From assembly GCA_035450485.1 (NCBI GenBank), contig DAOTMV010000012.1:38882-102881 (forward strand): a DNA stretch of 64,000 nt. Reading direction: 5' to 3'. Numbering within the stretch: the first letter of the stretch is position 1; each line of letters begins with the position of its first letter. Below are positions 10,427 through 64,000 of this stretch, piece after piece. This DNA is from Anaerohalosphaeraceae bacterium (GTDB lineage: Bacteria > Planctomycetota > Phycisphaerae > Sedimentisphaerales > Anaerohalosphaeraceae). The notes beneath the pieces are model-generated. The model saw nothing but the letters and a program-made list of their open reading frames with translations. It was not told the origin of the DNA and ran no database searches. The position numbers and the translations under genes are program-made.

Positions 10427-11426
10427 CTTCGGTTTCGTAGCCGGGGGCGTGCCAACAGGCGACGTTTCGGTCGGGGCGGACGGGGCGAAGTTCGGGTTCC
10501 ATAGTCTGGCAACGGCGGTCGTTTGCGCCGAGGGGGCAGCGAGGGTGGAATTTGCAGCCGGTCGGGAAGTGCAGGGGATCGGGGACCGTGCCGCCGATGA
10601 CGTCGAGGCGCTGGCGGCGGACGCCGAGGCGCGGCAGCGAGCGGAGCAGGCCCTGCGTGTAGGGGTGGAGGGGCTCTTCAAAGATTGCCTCGACGGGGGC
10701 GCTTTCGGCGACGCGCGAGGCATACATGACGACGACTTCGTCGGCATTTTCAGCGACGACGCCGAGGTCGTGGGTGATGAGGAGGACGGACATCTGCGTT
10801 TCGTACTGCAGGCGGCGGATGAGTTCGAGGATCTGGGCCTGGATGGTGACGTCGAGAGCCGTGGTCGGTTCGTCGGCGATGAGCAGCGAAGGGTTGCAGC
10901 TCAAGGCCATTGCGATCATGACGCGCTGACGCATGCCGCCGGACATCTGGTGTGGGTATTCCCTGGCGCGGCGCACGGGATCGGCGATGCCGACGAGCTG
11001 GAGCATGTCGGCGGCACGGCGCCAGGCGTCGGCGTCCTTCATCGGCTGGTGGAGCTGGATGGCCTCGACGATCTGCCGGCCGACGGTGTAGACGGGGTTG
11101 AGGCTTGTCATCGGCTCCTGGAAGATCATGGCGATGTCGTTGCCCCGGACCTGGCGCATTCGATTTTCCTTTGCGTTGAGCAGATCCTGGCGGTTGAACC
11201 AGACGCGGCCGCGGATGATTTTGCCGGGCGGGTCGGGTATGAGACGCAGTATGGACAGGGCTGTGACGCTCTTGCCGCAGCCGCTTTCGCCGACGAGGGC
11301 GACGGTTTTGGCCTTGCCGATGTCGAAGCAGACGTCATTGACGGCGCGGATTTCCCCGGAGTCGGTCTTGAAACTGACCGTGAGATTGCGAATCGACAGA
11401 AGGCTGTCTTTCTTTATGCGGCTCAT
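10302..11426 (-). CDS. peptide ABC transporter ATP-binding protein (OppD/DppD-like)
   Basis: Start MSRIKK overlaps the permease stop by ATGA. Walker A GESGCGKS, signature [16 protein letters not shown]. Has an unusually long acidic C-terminal tail that overlaps the next gene by ~40 codons. Confidence 0.85.
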
Positions 11427-55558: not shown

Positions 55559-58762
<3,204 letters not shown>

Positions 58763-58785
58763 TCGTACTCTGCAATGGCAGAGAT

Positions 58786-60066
58786 TCACGGCATACGAAA
58801 GAGACGCCCGTCGCCCGGACCTAATGCGATCGTCACTTTGCCCTCGTGATCGGTATTGCCAGCCTCTATCCATTCGCCGGTGGCCCGGTCCAGTTCCTTA
58901 AGCCGCCCGCCGCCGCGGACAAACTGCAGGGTTGCTTTGGCGCTTTGTCTGTAATCGCGATTGACCAGCATAAAAGCCGTTGCGCTGCCCCCCTGCCCGA
59001 AGAGACCAAGTACGTAAGACCCCTCCGAACATATCCGAACGGGTGAATCGCCCGGTACGGGTTCGGTGCCGAGCGGCAGCGGATCGGTATGGTAGGCGCC
59101 CAGTGAGTCAAGCGTCATCAAGGCAGGCCCGAACTTCTCGATCTCGGCATTAAGAGCCGCAACATCCGCCGCCAGCGGCGACGGCTTGCCGTCCCTGTAC
59201 AGCCCCCCGTACGATTCCGGTCCCCAGTATGTGAAATAACTGATGCCGCGGCCGCCATATGCCATGGTCGTAAAGGCAAGCCATCGCACCTCCGCGGCCG
59301 TGGGGAACCGCCAGGCCTTCACCACTGTGCTGGCCTGGATGATGTTCAGAAACGGCTTGCCGCATGCAAGCGCCGCCTCACGAATGAGCGCCAGATTGAG
59401 AAAATACTCTGGGCCGTCGCCGTCCAGGAAGAAGTGGTAATGGTCATAGCTGATCAAGTCGGGTTTGACAGTCTCCACAAACCGCATCAGGTGTTCGCGA
59501 TAACGCAGCACCACGCCGTTGTCCGAACCTATGCCGGCAAGATGGACGGGATAACCGTCGCGGCGGGCCTGCGAAGTGGTGATTCCCAACTGCTGTTCGT
59601 TGGCATACGTTGGAAAGAGATTGATATAAGCCAGATGCTTCGGGTCGCGCTGCCTGAGATAGGCCACCAATCGGCCAAGGGCGGCAAATGCGCCGGCGCT
59701 CGGCTCGTCGACAATATAATACGCCTCAAGCGCCGGGTGATCCTTGACGCGTGCAATCAGGGCGTCCAGTCCCGTACGCTTGTCCGCATCATCCAATATC
59801 TCCGGCCGCAGGAGGCTGTTGGTAAGCATGGCCCGCAGGCCGTGCCGCGCCGCAACGTCCAGACCTTCCTCCGGGACCCACGTAAGGTTGTAGTGTTCGG
59901 CGGCAACCCGGACCAGCGCCTCGTCCGTCGCCGGCGGCGGGCACCAGAACGTGATGAGAAACCGGTCCTGCCTCCATCCGGCGTTTGATTGTACATCCGC
60001 ACCAAAAGCCGGCCATACCAGCAGCGCCATCAGCCCGATGCCCACCAGGATCATTCTCCTGCACAT
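58786..60066 (-). CDS. secreted glycoside-hydrolase-like TIM-barrel protein (family uncertain)
   Basis: Strong RBS GGAGAAAGGAGAG and a signal peptide. The pattern of aromatic/acidic motifs (…YINLFPTYAN…, …ISYDHYHF…) is suggestive of a GH-like (β/α)8 fold; not assignable to a family by eye. Confidence 0.4.
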   Translation of the reverse strand: MCRRMILVGIGLMALLVWPAFGADVQSNAGWRQDRFLITFWCPPPATDEALVRVAAEHYNLTWVPEEGLDVAARHGLRAMLTNSLLRPEILDDADKRTGLDALIARVKDHPALEAYYIVDEPSAGAFAALGRLVAYLRQRDPKHLAYINLFPTYANEQQLGITTSQARRDGYPVHLAGIGSDNGVVLRYREHLMRFVETVKPDLISYDHYHFFLDGDGPEYFLNLALIREAALACGKPFLNIIQASTVVKAWRFPTAAEVRWLAFTTMAYGGRGISYFTYWGPESYGGLYRDGKPSPLAADVAALNAEIEKFGPALMTLDSLGAYHTDPLPLGTEPVPGDSPVRICSEGSYVLGLFGQGGSATAFMLVNRDYRQSAKATLQFVRGGGRLKELDRATGEWIEAGNTDHEGKVTIALGPGDGRLFRMP

Positions 60067-60157
60067 TGCTCTCTCCTTTCTCCGGTAAAATGCGTTGAGG
60101 TTTCATGCCGCTTACAGTATAGTATAATCTAAACGTTATTGACAGTCGGAGGATATT

Positions 60158-61150
60158 ATGAAAACCAGGGCCGTATGCATCATCGTTTTCGCCATCGCCG
60201 CGTTTATTGCACTCACATATGATGCCGCAACCGCATCACCGGACGACCTGTCTGTAAAGACCTATCGCAACCCTATCATCAACCGCATCGGCCCGGCCGA
60301 CCCTGCCGTGATTCGCTACCAGGGCAAGTACTACATGTACCCAACGTGGGACGGGCGGGGTTATGACGTGTTCGTCTCCGATGACCTTGTCACGTGGCAA
60401 CAGAAGCCCAAATGCTACACCGATTCCCGCGGCGGGGCATGGGCGCCGGATGTATTTTGCAACAGCAGGGGCGACGGCAAATTCTATCTCTACTACACGG
60501 TCAACAACCCTAAGGGCGGCAAGCTGATCGGCGTCGCCGTGGCGGACCATCCGCTGGGCCCGTTTGTCGACAAGGGCAACCTGATCGAGAATAATGTCAT
60601 CGACGCGCACCTGTTCCAGGACGACGACGGCAAACTGTACCTCTACTTCGTGCGTATCGGCGACCCGTTTCAGATATTTGTCCAGCCGATGGCCGACCCG
60701 CTGACCCTGACAGGCGCCCCCACGGAAGTCATCCGTGCCGAAACGCCATGGGAGACGGCCCGAGGTAAGGTGACCGAGGGCCCCTGGATGCTCAAGCACA
60801 AGGGACTGTATTATTTAATGTATTCCGGCAGCGGCGCCAATGGGCCGGAGTACGCAATCGGCTACGCCACCGCCAAGTCGCCTCTCGGCCCGTTTGTCAA
60901 GTATGCCGGCAACCCCATCGCCAAACAGGGCAACGGCGTCTTCGGACCCGGCCATCATTGCGTCGTCGAAGGCCCCGACGGCGGCCTGTGGATGGTCTAT
61001 CATCAGCAGAACAGTACAAAGGTGGGTTGGGACCGCTTCCTCGCCATCGACCCGTTGTGGTTCGACGACGAGGGCGTCATTCACGTCAAGACCACACGCA
61101 ATAGTGAGGAACCTCTGGACCACGCCTTGGCACTGAAGGAAATAAAATGA
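60158..61150 (+). CDS. glycoside hydrolase family 43 protein (β-xylosidase/arabinanase-like)
   Basis: Signal peptide. GH43 five-bladed propeller motifs …RNPI…ADP…YYMY (catalytic Asp), …WAPD…, …EGPWM (catalytic Glu region). GGAGGA RBS. Confidence 0.8.
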   Translation: MKTRAVCIIVFAIAAFIALTYDAATASPDDLSVKTYRNPIINRIGPADPAVIRYQGKYYMYPTWDGRGYDVFVSDDLVTWQQKPKCYTDSRGGAWAPDVFCNSRGDGKFYLYYTVNNPKGGKLIGVAVADHPLGPFVDKGNLIENNVIDAHLFQDDDGKLYLYFVRIGDPFQIFVQPMADPLTLTGAPTEVIRAETPWETARGKVTEGPWMLKHKGLYYLMYSGSGANGPEYAIGYATAKSPLGPFVKYAGNPIAKQGNGVFGPGHHCVVEGPDGGLWMVYHQQNSTKVGWDRFLAIDPLWFDDEGVIHVKTTRNSEEPLDHALALKEIK

Positions 61151-61202
61151 ACGGGCGCAGGCCAAAGTGCTGAAGAAGCACGGCAAGCCACCCCCTCACC
61201 AC

Positions 61203-61250
61203 TACGCCCGGCAGGATTCGAACCTGCGACCTTCGGTTTAGGAAACCGAC
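61203..61250 (-). tRNA. truncated tRNA-Arg(CCU) 3' fragment (anticodon stem to discriminator), attachment-site repeat
   Basis: Minus-strand sense: G-TCGGT-TTCCTAA-ACCGA-AGGTC-GCAGG-TTCGAAT-CCTGC-CGGGCGT-A. This gives the anticodon arm (U33, anticodon CCU, A37), variable loop, T-arm with a canonical TTCGAAT loop and the 3' acceptor strand. No matching 5' acceptor strand or D-arm is present upstream, where AT-rich DNA begins. Confidence 0.7.
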
Positions 61251-61305
61251 AACATAATTACATAAAATCTTTACAGTAAATAACTTATGGATTTCTCTGT
61301 TTTTA

Positions 61306-61456
61306 CTTGTCCTTTGCATTGTCCTTTTATGGACTTGCAAAACTCCAAAATACTGCGTTTATCTTCTCTTTTTAGGGACTCCAAAACTCTACCAAAGCGT
61401 TTTTTTATAGTGTCCAAAAACTCTTTTCAATTCTGTTTTATGGACTAAAGAAACCC
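61306..61456. repeat. iteron-like direct repeats (4x ~TTTTATGGACT(C/T)CAAAACTC) in AT-rich non-coding DNA
   Basis: Copies at ~61326-61345, 61371-61389, 61405-61423 and 61436-61456, plus a TGTCCTTT doublet at 61306-61326. Located ~200 nt downstream of the primase-helicase gene. Confidence 0.5.
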
Positions 61457-61633
61457 TGAAGGATTCTTTACATGGCCGCATTGTCCCGGTATCCTGTATG
61501 GCATGGCTGAAGACTGGAAAAAAGTATTGAAAGATTTCCCGATGGACGCTCTCCGAATGATTATTGAATGGGGCATTTTCATCGGTATCATTGCCCTTTT
61601 GGGTTATCTTTTAAGCGACTGAATCAACCGGGA

Positions 61634-63142
61634 CTATCCTTTTACGATAACCCCGTGTTCCCTGAACGTAATGCTTTGTGGGTCCAGACTGTACGCAAGC
61701 CGCATCCCCTGCCCTTTCCCATTCCGGGCCTTGAGAATATGCAGGGTCCGATTGTGTTCCGTCTCGATGGTTCCGCAGGCGGTTTTGACTTCATGGACTT
61801 TCTTATCGTGAATCTCAAGCCAGAGAATCGTTTGGGCAAACCGGGCAAAAGCAGCGGAACCAGCCAGCTTATTCATATCCGGGCAGTCATAATCCTTGAT
61901 GGGGTGCGTTACAAGGATAATACTGCAATCGTACTCAGTCGCCGCTCGTTTGACCTGTTGCAAGAATGTATTATCTTCCTCCCACTGTTTCGACGTGGTA
62001 TGCTCTGCCGCGGTAACGGGGTCAATCGCGATAATCCTACATCCCGCCTTTGCTTTTTGCCGGACCCATTCCGCAATCTGTGCCAGGGTCGGCATAGTTT
62101 CGGGGCAAACTTCGATACATCGGGCCATAGATTCGGCCAGCGGTTCATATTCGGCCAGGATATGCCGCGTTTCTTCCGGATTTGCCGCCGTCCAATCGGG
62201 GTCCGTCATGCCCTGCTGTTTGCTTTGCTGTGCAATCATCCGCCGCAGGTGGTATTCCCGTGAATCTTCAAGCTCATACAGGGCAATCGGGATTCCCTCC
62301 CTATGCCAGAAGGTCGCCGCCTCCAACAGCAAAAGGGATTTTGACGCACCCGGACCGCCGCAAAGGATCGTTATTGCCCCCGGCAAAAGGGCCTTTGTCG
62401 GGCCTCCGATCAATACCCACGGCCAGGCAACCGCCCGCCGCGTGCCGTTGATTTCCGCCTCGTATTGTTCCGCAAGGGCGGTACAGATCCCGCGGGGCTT
62501 TGCCTTACTCAAAGCATCGTAAAGGGCCTGCTGAATCTTTACTCGCTCCGTACGGACCGTTTCCAGCACCCGGACATAATCAACAACATCCTCCTTTTCC
62601 GCAAGGTCCAGTTCTGCCGGGTCCAATATCGAAATACGGGGGGCGGGGGTCAATCCCTGTAAAATTTCCTCCACCTGCCGCATGTGATTATGTCCGGCCT
62701 CGTCCTGATCGGGCCAGAGAATGAGATTTTTCCCTGAAAGCAAGGTCCAATCGGCATAAGGGGCTTTTCCTGCCCCCCCCGGGCTTGTGGTCGCGATAAT
62801 ACCGTATTCGTGCAGACAATGGACCGCCTTTTCACCTTCGACGATTACCACGGTATCGGCCAGCCGTATCCGGGCCCGATTATAGATCGGCCAGGGCTTC
62901 GGGGGGGCCTGCATCACAAAGCCGCCATTTTCCGGCCTGCACTGCCTGAACGTCTTGCCCTCTGCCGTTCGGCAGCGGAATACAATCATATCCGGCTTTT
63001 GTGTAATCGGGTCGGTGTACTGGTAAACCGCCTCCACTTCCTTCTTCCCCAGCCCGAGCCGCTCATTGATTTTCTCCAACCGCGGAGCCAGCGACGTGAC
63101 GGTCGGCTTGGGCTCGCCGATACTCGGCAAGTACCGATTCAT
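61634..63142 (-). CDS. primase-helicase fusion (TOPRIM primase domain + DnaB/RepA-like P-loop helicase domain), mobile-element replication protein
   Basis: 502 aa. TOPRIM motifs VVIVEGEKAV…ILWPDQDEAGHNHM. Helicase Walker A CGGPGASKSLLLLE and Walker B IIAIDPV…, with a typical RecA-like C-terminal domain. Confidence 0.75.
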   Translation of the reverse strand: MNRYLPSIGEPKPTVTSLAPRLEKINERLGLGKKEVEAVYQYTDPITQKPDMIVFRCRTAEGKTFRQCRPENGGFVMQAPPKPWPIYNRARIRLADTVVIVEGEKAVHCLHEYGIIATTSPGGAGKAPYADWTLLSGKNLILWPDQDEAGHNHMRQVEEILQGLTPAPRISILDPAELDLAEKEDVVDYVRVLETVRTERVKIQQALYDALSKAKPRGICTALAEQYEAEINGTRRAVAWPWVLIGGPTKALLPGAITILCGGPGASKSLLLLEAATFWHREGIPIALYELEDSREYHLRRMIAQQSKQQGMTDPDWTAANPEETRHILAEYEPLAESMARCIEVCPETMPTLAQIAEWVRQKAKAGCRIIAIDPVTAAEHTTSKQWEEDNTFLQQVKRAATEYDCSIILVTHPIKDYDCPDMNKLAGSAAFARFAQTILWLEIHDKKVHEVKTACGTIETEHNRTLHILKARNGKGQGMRLAYSLDPQSITFREHGVIVKG

Positions 63143-63407
63143 TGACGTTTTGGCGCATTATCTTTCCGGACCCGTCCCGTAGGACGTTTTTTTGCCGATC
63201 GCGCGCCAAACCCTTAACGGTTGTGGTCTTTTTCGCGCCATAGGGACGATAGGGGTACAGCGGACAGTCGGAAACGGTGCATTTTCTGATTTCATCCTTC
63301 TGCCAGCAGGTACAATCGAGACATTTTGCCTTCAAAGCCGCCGCCTTGCTCTTGCCGGACATGGCCTTTTTGTAAGTCTCACGGTAACGCTCTGGTATTT
63401 CTTCCAT
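63063..63407 (-). CDS. small Cys-rich (zinc-finger-like) protein
   Basis: 114 aa. CLDCTCW…C…CPLYPY cysteine cluster. Overlaps the primase-helicase start by 80 nt; the exact start/stop relationship is uncertain. Confidence 0.4.
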   Translation of the reverse strand: MEEIPERYRETYKKAMSGKSKAAALKAKCLDCTCWQKDEIRKCTVSDCPLYPYRPYGAKKTTTVKGLARDRQKNVLRDGSGKIMRQNVNESVLAEYRRAQADRHVAGSAVGENQ

Positions 63408-63489
63408 TCTGAATATAGTTACTCCTTTCTACAGCTTTTTAACACGTATTTCAGTCCTCGGCCTGTCCGAGTACTCTTTGACCCGGTGC

Positions 63490-64000
63490 ACGGCAAGCCT
63501 CGGCCTTCAGGCCGGGGAAGGATAGCGCGGACGCCGTAGGCGTCCTTTGGCCGGTCAGTGTGGCGTCTGCTGCTGCTCGATGTACTGGCGCACGATGGAA
63601 ATCGGCGCGCCGCCGCAGCTTGAAGCGAAATAGGACGGCGACCACAGCACGCCTTTCCAGTAGCGCTTCTGGATGTCGGGCCGTTCCTTCCGCAGCAGGC
63701 GACTGGAGACGCCTTTGAGGCTGTTCACGAGATTGGAGACAGCCACCTTGGGCGGGTATTCCACAAGCAGGTGAACGTGATCGTCCTCGCCGTCCATCTC
63801 GATCAGTTGCGCCTCGAAGTCGGCGCAGACCTTGGCGAAGATCGTGCGCAGCCGGTTGATGGCGTCGCCATCGAATACCCTGCGGCGATATTTCGCTACA
63901 AAGACCAAATGGACATGCATCTTAAAAACGCAGTGTCGTCCATGCCTAATATCGTTGTCGTCGCTCATAGGCCAAATTATAATATCCGCATGCAACGCCT
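63490..64000. mobile_element. IS200/IS605-family insertion sequence (right end with subterminal hairpins; left end beyond window)
   Basis: Hairpins GGACGCC-gta-GGCGTCC (63529-63545) and CGGCC-ttca-GGCCG (63501-63514) lie just 3' of the tnpA stop, as expected for an IS200 RE. No TnpB is present in the window. Confidence 0.5.
63555..63968 (-). CDS. tnpA: IS200/IS605-family transposase TnpA (HUH Y1 transposase)
   Basis: 137 aa from the internal ATG. HVHLLVEYPP (HUH motif), …SRLLRKE…WSPSYFASSCGGAPISIVRQYIEQQ with the catalytic Tyr. Typical size for TnpA_IS200. Confidence 0.85.
   Translation of the reverse strand: MSDDNDIRHGRHCVFKMHVHLVFVAKYRRRVFDGDAINRLRTIFAKVCADFEAQLIEMDGEDDHVHLLVEYPPKVAVSNLVNSLKGVSSRLLRKERPDIQKRYWKGVLWSPSYFASSCGGAPISIVRQYIEQQQTPH

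Follow-up and report, generated by a model that had tools for sequence, protein, structure and literature searches.

The window, i.e., the whole 64-kb stretch of DNA that was analysed, belongs to an uncultured Planctomycete population from anaerobic digesters. Near its right-hand end, the chromosomal gene carB, a gene for a 426-amino acid protein, and a GH43 glycosidase gene, which ends at position 61150, are followed by a 48-nt piece of a tRNA gene. Beyond this piece there are an AT-rich block, a primase/helicase gene, a small Cys-rich ORF, and the transposase gene of an insertion of the IS200/IS605 family (Table 1). The end of the window falls inside that insertion, which itself lies inside the element described below. 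Contigs L001 and L012 share 13.8 kb with the window at 100% identity, and past the window end they contain the partner TnpB gene and then a second TnpB copy.

Table 1. Features around the tRNA fragment (positions are those of the window).
Feature	Position	Strand	Remarks
Native host flank between the tRNA 3′ end and the GH43 stop codon	61151..61202	.	identical in occupied and empty-site contigs
Proposed attR core, displaced host tRNA-Arg(CCU) 3′ end including discriminator A	61203..61250	-	identity to the empty-site gene
AT-rich element arm (P arm of the proposed attR)	61251..61633	-	GC 0.37; missing from empty-site strains
Two direct AAAGGACAA sites, candidate arm-type integrase sites	61307..61327	-	12 bp apart, 57-77 bp from the core
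Four direct repeats of ~21 nt (TTTTATGGACTnnnAAAACTC)	61325..61456	+	spacing 44, 34, and 33 nt
ORF for a strongly hydrophobic 39-amino acid product (MAEDWKKVLKDFPMDALRMIIEWGIFIGIIALLGYLLSD)	61503..61622	+	called as gene in L012, L013, and L015
DNA primase/helicase gene (502 amino acids)	61634..63142	-	Toprim-type N-terminus and DnaB_C/AAA_25 helicase domain
Small Cys-rich ORF (CLDCTCW...CTVSDCPLYPYRPY)	63063..63407	-	no match in Pfam and PHROG searches
IS200-type TnpA (Y1 transposase), IS200/IS605 family	63555..63995	-	PF01797, 4.6e-46

Read on the minus strand from 61250 to 61203, the fragment has the sequence G TCGGT-TTCCTAA-ACCGA AGGTC GCAGG-TTCGAAT-CCTGC CGGGCGT A, which begins with tRNA position 26 and the anticodon arm (anticodon CCT), continues through the variable loop and the T arm, and closes with the 3′ acceptor strand and the discriminator base. 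It agrees at 48 out of 48 nucleotides with the intact tRNA-Arg(CCT) gene that ARAGORN calls in near-identical strains, a gene of 74 nt of which it covers linear positions 27-74. The 3′ half of a tRNA-Arg(CCU) gene without its 5′ half, as described in the earlier note, is indeed present with exact coordinates and represents the last 48 nt of the gene. In the 64-kb window no tRNA is called by ARAGORN and the 5′ half is also absent; the Rfam tRNA model reaches 30.2 bits against a cut-off of 29, with an alignment that covers the 3′ part alone. A second copy of the 48-mer is not present in the window at up to three mismatches, and none of 100 shuffles gave a match. Folded as a single strand, the fragment forms two hairpins and nothing more. 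An intron of the group I type splitting the tRNA-Arg(CCU) gene was rejected: the break is at position 26, 5′ of the whole anticodon arm, the window offers no 5′ half, and no intron family was found in an Rfam scan of positions 58000-64000. Likewise rejected was truncation by the IS200/IS605 insertion, the nearest gene of this type starting 2.3 kb off and the junction DNA being a conserved att arm.

The GC content is 0.371 in 61251-61633 versus 0.594 in positions 1-61202 of the window. The collapse in GC content on this side of the fragment, on which the earlier note relied, is a real drop, but it is local to about 380 bp and not island-wide; the island genes past the AT-rich block have values of 0.47-0.55, and that of the next gene is 0.55. 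The block holds candidate integrase arm-type sites and iteron-like repeats. The four TTTTATGGACTnnnAAAACTC repeats are located directly downstream of the primase/helicase gene and are candidate replication-origin iterons or sites for accessory proteins. We infer that the low-GC block is functional DNA, composed of arm sites and a probable origin, and not a compositional scar. The hydrophobic ORF is flanked by the primase stop codon and the att arm and has a promoter-like site at 61467-61495; its product could be a small membrane peptide. The primase/helicase itself is matched by Pfam families PF13481 (6e-11) and PF03796 (1.5e-9) and by PHROG 239, “DNA primase/helicase” (1.7e-43). Its identity to proteins of known phages is below 31%, and scans of IMG/VR and of the GTDB genome set returned no relatives.

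A lookup of the exact GH43 protein in public assemblies returned two kinds of contigs. In five of them (L008-L011 and L016), an identical GH43 protein is encoded, followed by a gap of 280 bp and the ThuA gene, and an intact 74-nt tRNA-Arg(CCT) gene is called by ARAGORN inside the gap. In contigs L012-L015 the primase gene is present, and these are 100% identical to the window. The empty-site contigs match the window from the host flank through position 61250 and then diverge into the 5′ half of the tRNA gene; the empty attB site that had been expected in relatives thus exists, with an intact tRNA gene and with the breakpoint exactly at the repeat. In the host flank, the number of SNPs relative to the window is 1-6 in 11,093 nt for L008-L011 and 0 in the shorter stretch of L016; with so few differences, occupied and empty contigs are alleles within one population. 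Contig L017 ends exactly at the junction and L027 inside the anticodon loop, as is expected if both alleles coexist in a sample. The junction is reproduced in JGI, ENA, and Logan assemblies, and tRNA-Arg(CCU) occurs once per locus in every contig examined. The DNA from 61251 onward, with its phage-type primase/helicase and IS copies, is missing from the empty-site strains, which bears out the view of the earlier note that it was acquired. An 8.6-kb contig, L005, which ends 7 nt past the fragment, was considered as a circular excised form and rejected, its ends not overlapping; an attP junction, as would be found in the circular form, was not present among the loci fetched.

The far junction was sought with the exact ThuA protein in public assemblies. 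Contigs L024, L025, L028, and L029 contain the ThuA gene, an intact tRNA-Arg(CCT) gene, about 500 bp of AT-rich DNA, and the gene of a 437-amino acid tyrosine integrase, followed by HTH_17/excisionase-like ORFs and a replication-initiator gene. The integrase is assigned to PF00589 (5e-21; 75.6 bits versus a cut-off of 27.1) and to PHROG 1 (1e-36), and the motifs TGLRRDE, HSLRHT, MRHSD, and LYTH are readable in its translation; identity to deposited phage integrases is below 30%. The excisionase candidates are three small ORFs with HTH_17 or PHROG 66 matches, all of which remain below the cut-off (22-23.5 versus 27 bits for Pfam). An intact tRNA-Arg gene and a tyrosine integrase beyond the window end had been predicted, and these four contigs possess both; provided that they are linked to the window as discussed below, the two genes would be located an estimated 11-12 kb past its end. 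The second copy of the fragment, which had also been predicted, is on L024 as an exact direct repeat of 46 nt, positions 61205-61250 of the window being identical to positions 11195-11240 of that separate contig. The junction next to the integrase gene is denoted attL and the one in the window attR in the following.

In a three-way alignment, attB equals attL leftward up to tRNA position 71, and it equals attR from position 26 rightward. At the tips, attB and attR read ...CGGGCGTA and then GTGGTGA, while attL reads ...CGGGCGCG and then TTCCCC, so that the 3′ tip of the tRNA is of the host type (GTA) at attR and derived from the element (GCG) at attL. Because of this difference, the copy in the window is the original host 3′ end, and the working tRNA is completed by element DNA. 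The regenerated tRNA at attL is changed from G1·U72 to G1-C72 and from A73 to G73. At L024 11168-11243, the C preceding tRNA position 1 can pair with the new discriminator G73; due to this pairing, ARAGORN calls a 76-nt gene that is shifted by one base.

A variant of the attL-side tRNA-Arg(CCT) was observed on L026 (11169-11240), where the T arm has compensatory changes, GTGAG/CTCGC versus GCAGG/CCTGC. This T arm was also found at five similar places, and the L026 contig ends at the tRNA. An explanation as strain polymorphism was rejected, since L023, with the same SNP pattern, has a normal T arm at an empty site. The variant sequence suggests that a second, different element may also integrate into tRNA-Arg(CCU).

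Further evidence on the nature of the junction comes from the sequence motifs in its arm. In the 64 kb of the window, the motif AAAGGACA is present at five places, two of which form a tandem next to the core; at the attL arm, three occurrences (two direct, one inverted) are found within 60 nt. The paired GGACAA sites with their 12-bp spacing, which are candidate integrase sites, are present in both arms and are kept in five relatives. Related integrases, with identities of 47-65%, are encoded on L031/L033, L034, L040, L041, and L043, and all of them adjoin tRNA-Arg genes (CCT; TCG in L034). Downstream of the tRNA in L024, L031, L034, L040, L041, and L043 there are two direct GGACAA sites and usually an inverted one. 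In three relatives a truncated tRNA repeat is found at the far end, 6.5 kb (L031), 7.1 kb (L043), and 9.7 kb (L040) away; these copies begin at about the same tRNA position as the fragment in the window, and upstream of each there is a GGACAA pair at the same distance from the core. From the layout shared with the relatives, the arm in the window is assigned to an attR of the 437-amino acid integrase family; the 8.5 kb adjoining this arm do not encode a member of the family.

Among the relatives is the complete 6.5-kb element on L031/L033 (9625-16198; Phycisphaerae MAG JAAYCR010000031), the integrase of which is 64% identical. Its order is tRNA-Arg(CCT), integrase, AlpA-like ORF, replication initiator, DnaC-like loader, two unknown ORFs, and a small terminase subunit (TerS; PF03592, 8e-26) adjoining attR, with a 36-nt tRNA repeat closing the element. 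This layout is that of a PICI-like satellite in a Planctomycete. The cargo of L040 is a lone 609-amino acid capsid gene, and that of L041 is GmrSD and a type I restriction subunit.

Sister samples, rather than the assembly of the window, supplied the contigs with attL and the long ones with attR. A contig that spans both junctions was not found: each of the nine integrase contigs inspected ends at the same IS, and walking into the gap from the attR side (with the DnaD-like protein) and from the attL side (with the exact integrase) led to short contigs or to the same stop. The integrase and the primase co-occur in one sequencing run, ERR14964767. All attL contigs break at one place, and the longest contig of the attR side, L005, begins at the matching place. 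At both break points, the 15-bp sequence AGGGCTTGCTGAATA forms a perfect inverted repeat with the tetranucleotide AATT next to it; contigs from SPAdes reach 54 nt into the repeat from both sides (k-1 at k=55), and a k141 contig reaches about 140 nt. The IS ends are located at L024 15278-15414 and at L005 1-50 (equivalent to ~69.76 kb) and interrupt the replication-initiator gene; removal of the IS lengthens the interrupted ORF by just 13 codons. A second copy of the IS end was observed in a different strain upstream of the GH43 gene (L016 1-124, equivalent to ~60131 in the window), and an IS with AGGGCTTGCTGAATA terminal repeats is absent from the window. From the IS ends, the AATT duplication, the contig overhangs, and the copy on L016, it is most plausible that the gap consists of one multi-copy insertion sequence, and this IS inside the element would be the reason why every short-read assembly breaks. 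A weak DnaC-like match ties the attR-side half to the complete relative on L031. Thus, attL and attR would bound one element, joined through the unassembled IS, with an estimated size of 12,541 bp plus the IS, or ~13-14 kb in total.

From attL to attR, the element would encode the following functions. At the attL end there are a partial inverted copy of the Cys-rich ORF, the 437-amino acid integrase, a 219-amino acid protein with a C-terminal HTH, and two AlpA/HTH_17-like ORFs. The middle part comprises the replication initiator, whose gene the IS interrupts close to the 3′ end, two DUF1376/DnaD-like proteins, and a DnaC-like loader; next are a RusA-like ORF abutting TnpB, a 288-amino acid XerC/D-like integrase between identical TnpB copies, and TnpA. 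The attR end consists of the Cys-rich ORF, the primase/helicase, the AT-rich block with the four 21-nt repeats and the GGACAA pair, and attR. The Cys-rich ORF (CLDCTCW...PLYPYRPY) has a 202-bp segment of which the element contains two copies, in inverted orientation and with 94% identity (window 63124-63324; L024 11521-11721); one copy is upstream of the primase gene and the other one, devoid of the N-terminal part, is between the tRNA and int at attL. On L001 (1362-5485, ~63.55-67.68 kb), the two identical 415-amino acid TnpB genes of the IS605 family that enclose the 288-amino acid integrase gene have the same orientation, and one is accompanied by an IS200 TnpA gene, an arrangement that looks composite. 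In the variant on L035, TnpB is directly upstream of the DnaD-like gene. The element may have been rearranged in the past or be of composite origin, as hinted at by the inverted 202-bp duplicate and the duplicated DnaD-like modules. Several IS insertions interrupt the replication-initiator gene and apparently also the RusA-like gene, and for this reason mobility may have been lost. Genes for head, tail, terminase, and lysis functions were not seen in the two halves (12.5 kb in total outside the IS gap). A complete temperate prophage was rejected, as only genes for integration, replication, and IS are present and the estimated ~13-14 kb would be too small.

From these data, it is very probable that the fragment is attR, the distal junction of an element that entered the single-copy tRNA-Arg(CCU) gene of an Anaerohalosphaeraceae bacterium (Planctomycetota, Phycisphaerae) in its 3′ part. 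Site-specific integration into the 3′ end of a tRNA gene, with the fragment as the distal att repeat, was the central proposal of the earlier note, and it is supported by the empty site, by attL, and by the 46-nt repeat. According to the predicted mechanism, attP of the circular element would copy tRNA positions ~26-73, differing only at 72 and 73, and its junction would read ...TTATGTAATTATGTT, the 46-nt core, and GCGTTCCCCTTTTAACTCC.... The 437-amino acid tyrosine integrase would catalyze a lambda-type recombination between the chromosomal gene and attP, in which the 3′ two-thirds of tRNA-Arg(CCU) are imitated, with strand exchange taking place somewhere within the 46 bp of identity and no finer placement. 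The 5′ part of the host tRNA would be completed by the copy from the element, giving attL beside int and regenerating a working tRNA, while the original 48 nt of the host 3′ end, together with the native flank and the GH43 gene, would be stranded at the far end as attR. The AT-rich 380 bp would then be the P arm of the element, with the GGACAA pairs as predicted sites for the N-terminal domain of the integrase and, probably, the replication origin downstream of the primase/helicase gene within the same block.

The alternative that survives best, though it is very unlikely, is that the fragment is the attR of a different or composite element, i.e., of a tandem or nested array in which the primase half represents a second element; integration would then be due to another integrase, such as the internal 288-amino acid XerC/D-like one, and the 437-amino acid integrase would belong to a neighbour. 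The two halves having never been found on one contig, the second integrase inside the attR-side half, the duplicated replication-organiser modules with the 202-bp inverted duplicate, and the attL variant of L026, which indicates that more than one element uses tRNA-Arg(CCU), would all agree with such an array. The IS ends and the 4-bp duplication, however, match across the gap, and no extra tRNA-like copy is present in the 8.5 kb by attR or the 4 kb by attL. Furthermore, the GGACAA pair has the core distance of L031, L040, and L043, whose sole integrase is of the 437-amino acid family, and the 288-amino acid integrase between its two identical TnpB copies looks like secondary cargo.

Less probable still, and indeed hardly to be expected, is a decayed tRNA pseudogene or old remnant whose partner junction was deleted, the strain being left without a restored tRNA-Arg(CCU) and the adjacent DNA being dead. 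While the element is riddled with IS copies and the sequence past the window end comes from other assemblies, the 48/48 identity to a live gene implies that no decay has occurred, and at most six SNPs in 11 kb between occupied and empty flanks point to a recent event. In addition, the population is rich in intact attL junctions, and the tRNA-Arg(CCU) gene is seen once per locus throughout. An assembly artefact, by which host and element would have been joined chimerically at the repeated tRNA sequence of a genome with a complete tRNA gene, is the least credible reading: tRNA segments are repeats prone to mis-joins in metagenomes and several contigs end at the junction, but at least five long contigs, produced by different projects and assemblers (JGI, megahit, SPAdes), share the identical junction, the primase gene is on two short Logan contigs as well, the complementary junction was found as predicted, and through the arm motif the two junctions are linked to a single integrase family.

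Considering the fragment as the attR of one integrated element, the closest functional parallel is the argW prophage family with KplE1/CPS-53 and HK620. KplE1 (CPS-53), HK620, and Sf6-type prophages use, via IntS, the same target species, argW, which is the tRNA-Arg(CCU) of E. coli and Shigella, and in both cases the ends are a duplicated core derived from the tRNA. In KplE1, the tRNA and intS are co-oriented with the P′ arm-type sites between them (PMC2951348), as are the corresponding parts here, and KplE1 is a defective element of 10.2 kb (PMC2951348, PMC3509656), similarly small. Its core has 16 nt (PMC2951348) versus 46 nt in the present case, where the anticodon and T arms are spanned. 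Differences from the KplE1 type are also seen in the unrelated GGACAA arm motif, the distant integrase, the Planctomycete host, and the regenerated tRNA, which deviates from the original at positions 72 and 73.

The element also resembles PICI/SaPI satellites in its small size, the location of int at one end, the AlpA/HTH_17-like regulators, the primase/helicase followed by an AT-rich iteron block, and the lack of a virion module in the sequence seen, and this resemblance extends to the relatives with terS beside attR (L031) and a lone capsid gene (L040). It differs with regard to the packaging genes by which PICIs are judged: terS, capsid-remodelling, and packaging genes are not found among the ORFs of the 12.5 kb available outside the IS gap. 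SaPIs, in addition, have non-tRNA att sites, unlike the element described here. Gram-negative PICIs often use tRNA att sites. Common to P4-like satellites or cryptic P4-type islands are the tyrosine integrase by a tRNA, the large fused primase/helicase, and frequent decay; unlike in P4, the 502-amino acid primase/helicase is of the Toprim plus DnaB_C and not of the alpha (D5_N/primase-polymerase) type, and psu, delta, and sid were not seen in the element.

Summarizing, the fragment is an ordinary attR site of a partly decayed element, and the mechanism behind it is textbook. In this Anaerohalosphaeraceae population, it shows precisely where the core genome gives way to mobile DNA. The truncation of the tRNA explains the empty result of the tRNA finder, and the IS of the element explains the breaks in the assemblies a few kb further on. 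The analysis yields attB, attL, and attR together with candidate arm sites for an uncharacterised integrase clade, found in a phylum from which hardly any mobile elements have been described, and hints at satellite-like elements there. It is conceivable, if somewhat doubtful, that an undescribed lineage of small (6.5-14 kb) phage-satellite-like elements exists in Phycisphaerae (Planctomycetota), of which the element described here would be a decaying member. Such a lineage may be defined by a tRNA-Arg-targeting integrase clade, a conserved GGACAA arm layout, and swappable cargo, of which TerS (L031), a lone capsid (L040), GmrSD with a type I restriction subunit (L041), and the primase/helicase of the window have been seen. 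If this were true, lysogeny would rewrite the acceptor end of the host tRNA-Arg(CCU), with G1·U72 becoming G1-C72 and A73 becoming G73.
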